From NCBI GenBank assembly GCA_964577235.1, contig CAZNYH010000078.1, positions 1 to 27,243 on the forward strand: a stretch of DNA of 27,243 bases, in the 5' to 3' direction. The notes beneath the pieces are model-generated. The model did not search any database. It saw only the letters and a program-made list of their open reading frames with translations, and was not told the DNA's origin. This document shows, piece after piece, positions 3,022 through 24,617 of the stretch. The stretch comes from an uncultured archaeon (GTDB taxonomy: Archaea > Iainarchaeota > Iainarchaeia > JAADDC01 > CAZMYQ01). The position numbers and the translations under genes were made by a program. How positions within the stretch are numbered: position 1 is the first letter of the stretch; every line of letters begins with the position of its first letter.

Positions 3022-3028
3022 TAAATAA

Positions 3029-3241
3029 CTATTTTATTATTTTTACTTCAATGTTAAATCTTTTACCTGTTTCTAGTACTTCGTTTTTTATGAATTCAGG
3101 AATATTTCCTTTTACTATGATTATCCCAAATCTGGCTAAAATTATTTCACCACCTGCGTTTTTTAAAGTTTCCAAAATAGTATTAAATGCTTCTCTTTCA
3201 TTTTGAGCGTTAAGTTTTCCTCCAAACACAGAGCACAACAT
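3029..3241 (-). CDS. Small hypothetical protein (70 aa) with a predicted beta-alpha-beta-beta-alpha-beta pattern
   Basis: TAATG overlap with the rpoN stop, fills the gap to the AAA gene (7 nt spacer), typical residue composition. Confidence 0.7.
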   Translation of the reverse strand: MLCSVFGGKLNAQNEREAFNTILETLKNAGGEIILARFGIIIVKGNIPEFIKNEVLETGKRFNIEVKIIK

Positions 3242-13583: not shown

Positions 13584-14408
13584 ATGAGGATATTGCTATT
13601 TATAACAGTATTTATAACAATATGTTTTGCGTTTCCTTTTTTTAACACAAAAAAAATTTGGATTTATGAAGTTAATGGTGTAATTGGTAAAGATGTGTTG
13701 CCTAAAGATTTAAAACCTATAATTGATAAATTAGAAAAAGACAGAGATGTAAAATATTTCGTGTTAAAAATTAGTTCTCCAGGAGGAGGCGTTGTAGATT
13801 CATTTGAAATTTATCATATGCTAAAATCGTTAAAATTAAAACGCCCAGACTTAAAAATAGTCGCTTATATTTATAGAGGAGGATATTCAGGAGCCTATTT
13901 GATTTCATTAGGAAGTGATGAAATTGTTTGCCACCCAGGATCATCTTTGGGAAGTATAGGGGTGATTGGAAGTTTCATCTCATTAAAAGAGTTATTTAAA
14001 AAAATAGGAATACAAACTTATGTAATGCGAACTCCTGAAACCAAGGCGTATCCTACAATTTATGATGATTTGAATCAAGAAAAACTAGAAGAATTATATA
14101 GACCATTGATTAAATATTATTATAATATTTTCCTAAATACAGTTAGAAAAGAAAGACATATTAATCCAGAAAGATATGCTGGAAAAATATATTCTTGTTT
14201 AGAGGCGGTTGAATACAAACTTGCTGATAGACAAATGTATTATTACCAATTTATTGAATATTTAAAAGAAAAATTAAAAAGAGAAGGATACAATCCTGTT
14301 GTAGAAAATGTTACTCCTAAAAAAGATTGGTTTGAGGAAATGTTTGGAGAGGTGTTTACATGGTTAAAGTATATATTTGTGGGTCCACAATTGAGTATGA
14401 TGACTTGA
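13584..14408 (+). CDS. sppA: S49-family signal peptide peptidase (SppA-like)
   Basis: N-terminal hydrophobic anchor, ISSPGG, GYSGAYLIS (catalytic Ser region), GSIGV, ETKAY (Lys). Confidence 0.85.
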   Translation: MRILLFITVFITICFAFPFFNTKKIWIYEVNGVIGKDVLPKDLKPIIDKLEKDRDVKYFVLKISSPGGGVVDSFEIYHMLKSLKLKRPDLKIVAYIYRGGYSGAYLISLGSDEIVCHPGSSLGSIGVIGSFISLKELFKKIGIQTYVMRTPETKAYPTIYDDLNQEKLEELYRPLIKYYYNIFLNTVRKERHINPERYAGKIYSCLEAVEYKLADRQMYYYQFIEYLKEKLKREGYNPVVENVTPKKDWFEEMFGEVFTWLKYIFVGPQLSMMT

Positions 14409-16192
14409 AAATAGGAGAATTATATAAAGGAAAAATAGTAGCAAAAGTAAAGTTAGGTTATTTAGTAAGACTTAATCCTATCCTAAAAGGATTGCTAAAA
14501 TTTGTGGATTCAAAAAGAATCCACGAAATTGGAGATGAAGTAATTGTAAAAATTATAGCAATAAGGCCAGAATTAGGAGAAATTGACTTAGTTGAAGAAA
14601 CTCCAGAAAATGTTGAAGAAGAATTAATTGAGAAAGAAGTAGATGTTATAAAAATAAAAGATGTTTCAGAGGGTTTAGTAAGAATTAGAGGGCAAGTTAT
14701 TAACATTATAATTACAGGTCCCACTGTTTTCACAATTACAGATGGAACTTCAATTATTTGGGCTAGTGCTTTAGACGTACCTGGATTAAAAGCATATCCT
14801 GAAATAAATGTCGGTGATTATGTAGAAGTTATTGGAAGAGTAGGATATCACGCTGAGAGACCTCAAATTTTAATATCATCGATGAAAAAATTGGAAGGAA
14901 TAGAAAAAGAATTAGTAAAGAAAGAAATTGAAGAAAATTTAGAAAAATTGAGCCAACCTGAAAAAATAGAGTTCTTGATTCAATCAGAAACTCTTGAAAA
15001 GTTAAAAGATAAATTAGTATTAGCAGCAAAATTAATTAGAAAAGCCATATTTACAGGAAAACCTATTTTGATAAGACATCATTATGATTGTGATGGAACT
15101 TGTGGTGGTTTAGCATTGGAAACTGCAATTCTTGAATTAGTAAAAAAAGTAAATCCACATCCAGAAGCTGAATGGTATTATATAATCAGAAAACCTACTA
15201 AGGTGCCATATTATCATGAAGAAGATGTAATTAAAGATATTGTAAATGCTTTTGAAGATAACTTAAGATTCAATCAAAAATTGCCTTTAATAATTGTAGT
15301 TGATAATGGATCTGGAAGTGAGGATATACCTGCTTATAAAAGGTTAAGAAATTTGGGAATAGATATAATTGTTATTGATCATCATAAGCCATATATTGAA
15401 AATGGAAAATGTCCTGTTGATGATTATGTTTTATGCCATGTAAATCCAAGATTACATAACCTTTCTGGAGATTTTACAGCAGGAATGTTGGCAACTGAAA
15501 TAGCCTTGTTAGTAAATCCTAATATAAAAGAAAAAATTAAACATTTGCCAGCATTAGCTGGAACGGGGGATAGATCAGAACATCCAGATTATGAAAAATA
15601 CTTAAAAATTGCAGAAGAAAAAGGATATAATAAAGAATTTTTGAAGAAAATTGCAGAATGTATGGATTATGAAGCATTTTATTTAAGATTTATGAGTGGT
15701 CGAGGTTTTGTTAATATTATTGCTGGATTAGAAGATTATGAACTATGCAAAAAATACGTAGAAGATTTATATAAAATAGTTAAATCTAGACAAGAAAGAC
15801 AATTAAAGGTAGTAATTCCTCATGTTGTAGAAAAAACAATTGAAGATTGGAAAATTATCTTCATAGATGTGGAAAAATACGCTTATAAATTTGAATATCC
15901 AGCTCCTGGAAAAACAGTTGGATTAGTAAAAGATTATTTTGATGGAGATTATCCATTAGTTACAATAGGTCATGGGCCAGATTTTATAATAATTAGAGCT
16001 AATAAAAAAGCAGTTGAAAAAGGATTTGATGTAACCGATTTATGCAACTTTTTAGATAATTATGTCAAAGATGCTGGTATCTTAGGAGGAGGACACGAAG
16101 ATGCAGGTTCTATAAAGTTTATTGAAGGAAAAAAAGATGAGGTTATACTTGGAATTGAAGAATACTTTAAAACTAAGATTACTAAGATATAA
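14360..16192 (+). CDS. RecJ-like DHH phosphoesterase/exonuclease with S1 and OB domains (HAN/COG1107-like, no N-terminal Zn finger)
   Basis: RHHYDCDG, VVDNGS, IDHHKP, VNP, AGTGD, GGGHEDAG; S1-like GKIVAKVKLGYLVRL; OB TGPTVFTITDG; SD GAGGTG upstream, inside sppA. Confidence 0.88.
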   Translation: MVKVYICGSTIEYDDLKIGELYKGKIVAKVKLGYLVRLNPILKGLLKFVDSKRIHEIGDEVIVKIIAIRPELGEIDLVEETPENVEEELIEKEVDVIKIKDVSEGLVRIRGQVINIIITGPTVFTITDGTSIIWASALDVPGLKAYPEINVGDYVEVIGRVGYHAERPQILISSMKKLEGIEKELVKKEIEENLEKLSQPEKIEFLIQSETLEKLKDKLVLAAKLIRKAIFTGKPILIRHHYDCDGTCGGLALETAILELVKKVNPHPEAEWYYIIRKPTKVPYYHEEDVIKDIVNAFEDNLRFNQKLPLIIVVDNGSGSEDIPAYKRLRNLGIDIIVIDHHKPYIENGKCPVDDYVLCHVNPRLHNLSGDFTAGMLATEIALLVNPNIKEKIKHLPALAGTGDRSEHPDYEKYLKIAEEKGYNKEFLKKIAECMDYEAFYLRFMSGRGFVNIIAGLEDYELCKKYVEDLYKIVKSRQERQLKVVIPHVVEKTIEDWKIIFIDVEKYAYKFEYPAPGKTVGLVKDYFDGDYPLVTIGHGPDFIIIRANKKAVEKGFDVTDLCNFLDNYVKDAGILGGGHEDAGSIKFIEGKKDEVILGIEEYFKTKITKI

Positions 16193-23786: not shown

Positions 23787-23858
23787 TGGGGCCGCTGGGA
23801 ATCGAACCCAGGACCTCCGCCTCGTCAGGGCGGCGTCATACCACTAGACCACGGCCCC
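23787..23858 (-). tRNA. tRNA-Val(GAC), intronless, CCA not encoded
   Basis: GGGGCCG acceptor stem, D arm GTCTAGTGGTATGAC, anticodon arm CCGCC-CTGACGA-GGCGG, T arm CTGGG-TTCGATT-CCCAG, discriminator A; 72 nt. Confidence 0.97.
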
Positions 23859-23873
23859 TTATTATACAATATA

Positions 23874-23898
23874 CAAAAACTTATTTAAATATTTTTCG
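23874..23898. promoter_or_regulatory. Palindromic TATA box with A-rich BRE-like flanks on both sides (bidirectional promoter for tRNA-Val and ORF 23919)
   Basis: TATTTAAATA at 23882-23891 is self-complementary; CAAAAAC precedes it on +, CGAAAAA precedes it on -. Confidence 0.65.
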
Positions 23899-23918
23899 AA
23901 AATGACATTATAAAGTTT

Positions 23919-24617
23919 ATGACATTAAAAGCCAAGGAAATTAATAGTTTTTTTCCATATTTCGAAGTGTTAAGATCAACTGCTAAATACAGGGAAATAA
24001 TAGAAAAAATTCATAAATATTCTGGAAAAAATAATATTATTGAATTTTGTGAGTGGTGTTTGAAAAATGAAAAAATTGTGAACAAATATACTAGGGCAAA
24101 GTATTTGCTTACAGCATGTAAATGGATAATAAACAATCAAGAAAAAGTTGAAGAAATAATAAATAAATATAAAAATGTTCGATTTCCTGAAATAATGAAT
24201 CTCCCACATAAATGGGTTATTATTATTTTGCAACATTTTGGGTTTTTAGAGATTACAGAAAATGGTTTAAGGGAACGAATTATACACAGAGTGTATGTAA
24301 AAGCATATAGAAAAAATCCTAATATTAAAGTTAAAAATAAATTTGACCAACTATTAGAGTACTTATCTCAAAATAATGATAAAGTTTCTAATCACTTGCG
24401 TAGAATAATTCAAGGAGAATTATATTTTGAAGAGTTTAAAATATTACTCAAAGAAGGCGTTTTGGAGATAAGTCATGTATCATTATCATACCAATTATTC
24501 AGAATTTTGAGAAAATTTGGATTCGTAGAATTAGAGAGATGGTCTCTAGGCAGAGTTAGAGTATACTTAACAGATAAAGAAGAATTTAAGAAATTATTTA
24601 GAAACTTAAATCCCTAA
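23919..24617 (+). CDS. Hypothetical protein (232 aa), possibly tandem winged-helix
   Basis: Two related motifs IILQHFGFLEI and RILRKFGFVEL; the second is followed by a wing-like RVRVYLTD. Confidence 0.6.
   Translation: MTLKAKEINSFFPYFEVLRSTAKYREIIEKIHKYSGKNNIIEFCEWCLKNEKIVNKYTRAKYLLTACKWIINNQEKVEEIINKYKNVRFPEIMNLPHKWVIIILQHFGFLEITENGLRERIIHRVYVKAYRKNPNIKVKNKFDQLLEYLSQNNDKVSNHLRRIIQGELYFEEFKILLKEGVLEISHVSLSYQLFRILRKFGFVELERWSLGRVRVYLTDKEEFKKLFRNLNP

Follow-up and report, generated by a model that had tools for sequence, protein, structure and literature searches.

The window analysed here, the whole 27,243-nt stretch, is contig C78 of an archaeal assembly that comprises 609 kb in 120 contigs, with a GC content of 27% and a completeness of ~80%. 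The sole tRNA gene found in it by ARAGORN is that of tRNA-Val(GAC), located on the minus strand. The acceptor stem of this tRNA is formed by GGGGCCG and CGGCCCC, with U8 in register and A as the discriminator base, and CCA is not encoded. The six bases 5' of G1 read TAATAA (T-6, A-5, A-4, T-3, A-2, A-1) on the minus strand. Upstream of them lie a TATA box and an A-rich, BRE-like element, followed by an ORF that runs in the opposite direction (Table 1).

Table 1. Features of the tRNA-Val(GAC) locus, in window coordinates
Feature	Position	Strand	Basis or remark
tRNA-Val(GAC)	23787..23858	-	72 nt; G1 at 23858; ARAGORN with sequence and U8 register check
Predicted 5' leader AAUAA	23859..23863	-	First T of TTTAAATA is 26 nt from the predicted start
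Initiator-like T/AAT (T-6, A-5, A-4, T-3)	23861..23864	-	TATA-anchored alignment of 16 tRNA promoters
Mirror A-rich CAAAAAC, candidate BRE	23874..23880	+	Predicted; upstream of the same palindromic TATA
TATA box TTTAAATA	23882..23889 (-31..-24 from G1)	-	8/8 match to TTTAWATA
BRE-like A-rich CGAAAAA	23892..23898 (-40..-34)	-	TA separates CGAAAAA from TATA
Divergent 232-aa ORF	23919..24617	+	ORF list; ATG 60 bp from G1 of tRNA-Val(GAC)

The original prediction for this locus described CGAAAAA and the TATA 8-mer at -31 to -24 on the minus strand, a pyrimidine-purine step at -3/-2, and a purine at G1. All of these sequence statements are right, with T-3/A-2 and the purine G1 both in place; base -1 is A. 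Its claim of a BRE/TATA promoter immediately beside the tRNA is also borne out, and any leader is very short. The layout CGAAAA-nn-TTTAWATA is common to the upstream regions of tRNA-Lys and tRNA-Val(TAC) of the same genome, and the enrichment of A at -38 to -34 across its tRNAs fits a BRE directly 5' of TATA. With an EM-derived 16-mer BRE+TATA matrix, whose training set includes the site itself, the tRNA-Val(GAC) site scores 11.0 bits; scores of at least 10 bits occur at a rate of 9.5e-5 per position genome-wide. Judged by these sequence features, the element belongs to the ordinary archaeal BRE/TATA class of promoters served by TBP and TFB, and transcription would proceed from the predicted site.

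The palindromic TATA box and the divergent ORF

The 8-mer TTTAAATA sits within a perfect 10-nt palindrome, TATTTAAATA (23882-23891), and on the plus strand it starts at 23884. T/A steps are found 26 nt out on both sides of TATTTAAATA, at 23864/23863 and at 23909/23910, the latter 26 nt downstream of the plus-strand start of TTTAAATA. The gap between BRE and TATA is 2 nt, the consensus value, in the minus-strand arm and 4 nt in the plus-strand arm. The palindrome, with its A-rich arms on both strands, suggests a single TBP site used bidirectionally, for tRNA-Val as well as for the 232-aa ORF. The ORF probably shares the palindromic TATA, and its predicted 5' UTR would then be 9 nt long. Similar divergent tRNA/ORF pairs are present at tRNA-Lys (contig 46) and tRNA-His (contig 39).

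The perfect palindrome, the A-rich arm on each side of it, and the T/A step at 26 nt on the plus strand would also be expected if the box served mainly the 232-aa ORF, with the tRNA transcribed from elsewhere, for example from a second TATA-like 8-mer, TTTATAAT, located at -56 to -49 of tRNA-Val(GAC), with a leader of ~30 nt. We consider this very unlikely, as it is the minus-strand arm that has the consensus BRE gap, and as the box at -56 lacks a BRE and overlaps the beginning of the divergent ORF. In addition, the placement at -31 is seen again at tRNAs lacking a divergent partner, among them Gly-TCC and Glu-TTC, which trail another tRNA.

TATA placement and the distance to the start site

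In the whole assembly, ARAGORN finds 36 tRNAs, of which 35 have enough flank to be scored after correction of their 5' ends by the U8 register. When these are aligned on +1, T occupies -25 in 26/35 and -6 in 24/35. Matches of at least 7/8 to the TATA 8-mer start at -31 in seven of the 35 tRNAs, and 15 such hits, in ~13 of the 35, fall at -33 to -29; only one tRNA has a match of this quality at -26. When the upstream sequences were randomly rotated in 5000 trials, a single-offset peak of 7 appeared in 0.02% of them (P=0.0002), and 15 hits in a 5-nt window were never reached. The EM 16-mer (A-rich BRE plus TATA), with a matrix trained on the tRNA set itself, starts at -36 in 9/35 tRNAs and at -38 to -34 in 16/35; since the TATA 8-mer begins 5 nt inside it, these 16 tRNAs have TATA starts at -29 to -33.

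As the clustering at -31 beats the rotation null, the promoter is taken to be real and its placement to be selected. TATA-like 8-mers are common in a genome of 27% GC (exact TTTAWATA is found 654 times in 1.2 M strand positions, a rate of 5.4e-4 per position), and further near-matches lie at -19 and -8 of tRNA-Val(GAC), as might be expected if the match at -31 were chance AT-rich sequence with no promoter function. Against the enrichment at -31 and the co-occurrence of BRE and TATA, an explanation by chance is extremely improbable; moreover, this is the only BRE-bearing candidate in the 60-bp divergent intergenic region that must hold the promoter of the tRNA.

The spacing is not invariant, with the mode taking in 7-9/35 genes and the 5-nt range 16/35. 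Roughly half of the tRNAs lack a box at -33 to -29, two of these trailing another tRNA by 4-5 nt. It had been proposed that a tight, fixed distance from TATA to G1 over all tRNA genes would support initiation at the mature 5' end; what is found is a variable spacing (-29 to -33, the other tRNAs having no box in that range), which argues against it.

The tRNAs of G001, a genome of the same genus, have a very strongly conserved promoter, AAC-WW-ATATATAT-YAC. The 16-mer starts there at -36 to -42 in 24/33 tRNAs with the mode at -39, corresponding to a TATA 8-mer at ~-31 to -37 with the mode at -34, and the mRNA hexamers of G001 are found at -26 to -30. By these positions, the leaders of G001 would be ~3 nt longer than those of the window's genome and would vary over 7 nt. 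The spacers in its tRNA clusters are 3-5 nt long. A near-identical cassette of ~30 nt (AAC-WW-ATATATAT-YAC-AAAGAATATAAT-like) precedes more than 20 different tRNA genes of G001 (loci L010-L039), and these cassettes are far more uniform than the promoters of the window's genome. In the same-order genome G002 (44% GC), TTTAAA is located at -31/-32 before many tRNAs; its apparent leaderless mRNAs are too few and too widely spread (-26 to -33) to serve as a ruler.

The leader of 0-2 nt originally proposed for tRNA-Val(GAC) was derived from the rule that archaeal TATA boxes lie at about -30 to -23 from the start site. This rule fits Methanocaldococcus jannaschii, in which 23 +/- 2 nt separate the start site from the 8-nt TATA box, measured at its 3' edge (PMC2699501), but it fits neither Nanoarchaeum equitans (-26) nor the leaderless mRNAs (-27) and the RNase P RNA gene (-26) of the genome studied here. 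N. equitans is the only organism known for which transcription of tRNAs without a leader has been demonstrated. According to Randau, Schroeder and Soell (2008), whose work is described in PMC10100707 and PMC3491384, its tRNAs start at +1 and carry 5'-triphosphates. Their box A, TTTAAA, is placed "26 nucleotides upstream" in one source (PMC3491384), and another puts the promoters 26-27 nt upstream and has transcription begin at +1 or -1 (PMC10100707). In the 40-nt upstream sequences of Additional file 2 of PMC3491384, the 26 counts from the first T (e.g. sRNA12, sRNA16, sRNA21). The same script, run on the N. equitans genome (AE017199.1), places the start of TTTAWA at -26 in 20/27 tRNAs, with a range of -28 to -25. 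In tRNA-Val(GAC) of N. equitans the box is at -26 and T is at -1, whereas the first T is at -31 and A is at -1 in the tRNA described here.

The mRNAs of the genome itself provide a second calibration. ORFs of 80 codons or more were searched 5' of their first ATG for sites to which the tRNA-derived matrix gives 8 bits or more, a score reached at a genome rate of 6e-4 per position. The hits peak very sharply 32 nt 5' of the first ATG, with 13 compared with 0-3 at neighbouring offsets, and in these leaderless mRNAs the TATA 8-mer begins 27 nt before the A of ATG (-27). Because the transcript must include the start codon, transcription can begin no further than 27 nt from the first base of TATA. 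The ATGs that were checked are true starts, one being followed by a class III signal peptide at residues 3-25, another by a signal-like N-terminus, and a third by a permease domain from residue 5; among the 10 ORFs submitted to Pfam for this check, seven gave no N-terminal information. The 8-mer TATAAATA is found at -27 to -20 before an ATG, yet at -31 to -24 before tRNA-Arg(TCT), Gly(TCC), and Gly(GCC). Box A of N. equitans is equally distant from the AUG (-26 to -28) and from the tRNA +1 (-26); in the genome studied here, the tRNA +1 sits 4 nt further from TATA than the leaderless AUG. In front of the RNase P RNA gene, the distance from the beginning of TTATATAA to the first G of helix P1 is 26 nt, and a T/G step is present there. 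By this ruler of 26-27 nt, a start at G1 would require the TATA box of tRNA-Val(GAC) to be 4-5 nt closer to the gene.

The geometry of Methanocaldococcus, as well as that of Thermococcus kodakarensis, in which the distance from TATA to the start is ~23 bp (PMC4247193), would lead to another result. Applied to a box at -31 to -24, which it matches exactly, it gives a start at G1 or -1. If transcription started at G1 or 1-2 nt upstream, the tRNAs with a box at -31 would need little or no 5' processing, and RNase P would be kept mainly for the tandem tRNAs. The purine at G1 is in keeping with this, and so is the recurrence of the -31/-32 mode in the 44% GC genome of the same order, as are the boxes of Glu-CTC and Arg-TCG near -25, leaderless even under the 26-nt geometry. 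We nevertheless regard it as unlikely, since the box of N. equitans is at -26 and not at -31, and since the leaderless mRNAs and the RNase P RNA gene of the genome itself give 26-27 nt. In addition, A is the base at -1 in 9/16 tRNAs of the modal class, compared with T or C in 21/28 tRNAs of N. equitans, a T/A step is conserved at -6/-5, and the spacing differs by several nucleotides within the genus. The Methanocaldococcus/Thermococcus geometry was also tried as a ruler for the mRNAs, where it would place the starts of leaderless mRNAs downstream of verified start codons, and for that reason it was set aside. Counted from the first base of TATA, the distance to the start is 26 nt in N. equitans and ~31 nt in M. 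jannaschii (PMC2699501). Such a 5-bp difference between archaeal lineages bears on all attempts to predict leaderless transcripts solely from sequence.

The bases around the predicted start favour the shorter distance. When 16 tRNA promoters are aligned on TATA, the columns T25 (13/16), A26 (11/16), A27 (14/16), and T28 (11/16) stand out, and a T/A step is present at the predicted start in 10/16, including T-6/A-5 of tRNA-Val(GAC). In genes that are off the mode, the T/AAT motif tracks TATA and not the tRNA, as in Pro-TGG (leader of 3 nt), Glu-TTC (4), and Ser-TGA (6). From the geometry of N. equitans, of the leaderless mRNAs, and of the RNase P RNA gene, we infer that tRNA-Val(GAC) starts at A-5 (23863), with A-4 (23862) as an alternative. 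The register of TBP on AT-rich runs is ambiguous by 1-2 nt, and the choice of start can shift by +/-2 nt. The calibrations of 26-27 nt, together with the T/A step at -6/-5, thus predict a leader of 5 nt, AAUAA, in place of the proposed 0-2 nt. The same AAUAA leader is predicted for five tRNAs: Val(GAC), Val(TAC), Lys, Gly(TCC), and Leu(CAA). The choice of start site at tRNA promoters could differ by several nucleotides from that at mRNA promoters.

In tRNA-Glu(CTC) (contig 49) and tRNA-Arg(TCG) (contig 75), the best BRE/TATA match is 5-6 nt closer to the gene, with the 8-mer at ~-25. Under the 26-nt geometry, these two would start at ~+1, and a minority of the tRNAs may be truly leaderless.

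RNase P and 5' processing

The gene of RNase P RNA is located on the minus strand of contig 62 (9169-9379; L001:1501-1711). It is 211 nt long, has 53% GC in a genome of 27% GC, scores 95.5 bits with RF00373 (gathering score 84), and conserves CR-I to CR-V. This RNA keeps both domains, with the P3 region and a stretch of 37 nt in the model shrunk to a few bases; the corresponding RNAs of relatives are 224-330 nt long. RNase P RNA was detected in 28 of the 31 genomes searched (this one and 30 relatives), including the genome of the same genus.

Two of the protein subunits are recognizable. Rpp29 is encoded by an intact 80-aa ORF (66.5 bits), and the likely Rpp21 is a 100-aa zinc-ribbon protein that scores 28.9 bits in Pfam (cut-off 29.3) and has E=4.8e-10 for component 4 in NCBIfam. 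The Rpp21-like gene lies on contig 39 (2218-2520), ~500 bp from tRNA-His (3022-3094) and away from the rps19e neighbourhood of the window, and the Rpp29 gene on contig 83 adjoins an enolase-like ORF. Both genes are thus outside their usual ribosomal-protein contexts. Neither Pop5 nor Rpp30 was detected in this genome (80% complete) or its sister species, whether by Pfam or by a Pop5-like query from the sister family, in which divergent versions of Pop5 and Rpp30 exist. The sole hit, a weak Rpp30-like candidate, is the 143-aa ORF at ~14179-14607 of the minus strand of contig 11 (L120:1456-1884), which matches the divergent Rpp30-like protein of the sister family at 3e-7 and 19% identity in pairwise BLASTP. 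It is followed by an overlapping 136-aa ORF in the position that Pop5 has in the relative; Pfam gives no hit for either the 143-aa or the 136-aa ORF. A search of the same 80% complete genome for HARP, the protein-only form of RNase P that could act as a substitute (PF08745, PIN_5), yielded only partial PIN-domain matches of at most 21 bits, with the cut-off at 27.

Tandem tRNAs separated by 4-5 nt occur twice, as the pair Gly-GCC/Ile-GAT and as an intron-containing tRNA followed by Tyr-GTA, and tRNA-Tyr starts with C. Close spacing of tandem tRNAs has been used as an argument for the need of a 5' endonuclease in Aquifex (PMC10941002), and the spacing of 4-5 nt found here implies the same need. 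The idea of an organism free of RNase P is refuted by the genes of RNase P RNA and protein elsewhere in the assembly. With RNase P RNA, Rpp29, and the likely Rpp21 encoded, and with tandem tRNAs 4-5 nt apart, the view that 5' processing is unnecessary does not hold, and the sequences indicate that such processing is not dispensable in this genome. The accompanying caveat, that short leaders also occur in archaea possessing RNase P, was right.

The reading that we consider probable is a standard TBP/TFB promoter with the start most likely at A-5 and a 5-nt AAUAA leader cut by RNase P. For tRNA-Val(GAC), we infer the exact start site and the processing steps as follows. The A-rich BRE and TTTAAATA would recruit the standard TBP/TFB machinery within the 60-bp divergent intergenic region, and RNA polymerase would initiate at A-5 (23863), in the T/A step that lies 26 nt downstream when counted from the first T of TATA. 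The resulting pre-tRNA-Val would carry the 5-nt AAUAA leader and a 3' trailer; RNase P would remove the leader, and CCA would be added after 3' trimming. With a predicted leader of ~5 nt and with RNase P encoded, the arrangement is compact but ordinary.

A near-uniform AAUAA leader, an RNase P RNA of 211 nt, and Rpp29 and Rpp21 as the only clearly detectable proteins point towards another possibility. We can speculate, with little confidence, that this vent-type genus is an intermediate on the road to the state of N. equitans, with leaders of 3-7 nt and some tRNAs leaderless, or that the modal class starts at G1 beside a retained RNase P.

As found, the locus matters little in itself: a compact genome carries a tRNA promoter of the normal archaeal kind. 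The ruler is of wider use. In the proven leaderless layout of N. equitans TTTAAA starts at -26, whereas the quoted rule of -30 to -23 fits Methanococcales, so that boxes at -31 to -24 in small AT-rich archaea need not mean leaderless tRNAs, and the leaderless mRNAs of a genome offer an internal calibration for its start sites. If the uniform 5-nt leaders are real, they would make the genus a source of substrates for studying how minimal leaders are dealt with by a reduced archaeal RNase P.

Comparison with known systems

Leaderless mRNA promoters of archaea, among them those of Sulfolobus, use the same basal promoter as the tRNA genes described here, with the same distance from TATA to the start, and the leaderless mRNAs of the genome itself served as a ruler. 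They differ in that the first base of a leaderless mRNA is the A of AUG, whereas the functional 5' end of the tRNA is 4-5 nt downstream of the predicted start. Haloferax provides another example of such promoters (PMC4983044).

Ordinary archaeal tRNA promoters are represented by those of Thermofilum pendens, located 30-49 nt upstream of the mature 5' ends (PMC3218864), of Pyrobaculum, which combines short leaders with a reduced RNase P (PMC13462272), and of Methanococcus vannielii, whose tRNA-Val promoter is the model used in PMC2699501. As in these archaea, BRE/TATA lies within a few tens of nucleotides of the tRNA, the leaders are short and variable, and RNase P is kept. With 3-7 nt, the leaders predicted for the genome studied here are nevertheless among the shorter ones, and their sequence is unusually uniform, with AAUAA in five tRNAs. 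In contrast to the type T RNA of Pyrobaculum, the 211-nt RNase P RNA has lost neither of its domains.

The resemblance to N. equitans extends to a tiny AT-rich archaeal genome and to individual tRNA genes that each have an A-run, two bases, and a TTTAAA promoter immediately upstream. Another common feature is the association of a tRNA with a small RNA, as in the tRNA-sRNA dicistrons of N. equitans, since tRNA-Gln is followed by SRP RNA in this genome. The tRNA-Gln(TTG)/SRP RNA locus is found on contig 72 (12217-12530; L071:1436-1749), where the tRNA ends at L071:1507 and the match to SRP RNA (RF01857, 107.6 bits) begins at the end of the tRNA or within 2 nt of it. The pair looks like a dicistron, in which cleavage at the tRNA's 3' end would create the 5' end of SRP RNA.

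The differences from N. equitans concern the features that define its leaderless layout. Box A at -26 is nearly invariant there (20/27), whereas here the mode is at -31 and the spread is broader, and the pyrimidine at -1 in N. equitans corresponds to A at -1 of tRNA-Val(GAC). N. equitans has no RNase P, whereas RNase P RNA, Rpp29, and the likely Rpp21 are encoded here, and this genome, unlike that of N. equitans, contains tandem tRNAs 4-5 nt apart. Thus, none of the four features of the leaderless layout that were compared (position of the box, its invariance, a lack of RNase P, and a lack of tandem tRNAs) is shared by the genome that carries this tRNA-Val(GAC).
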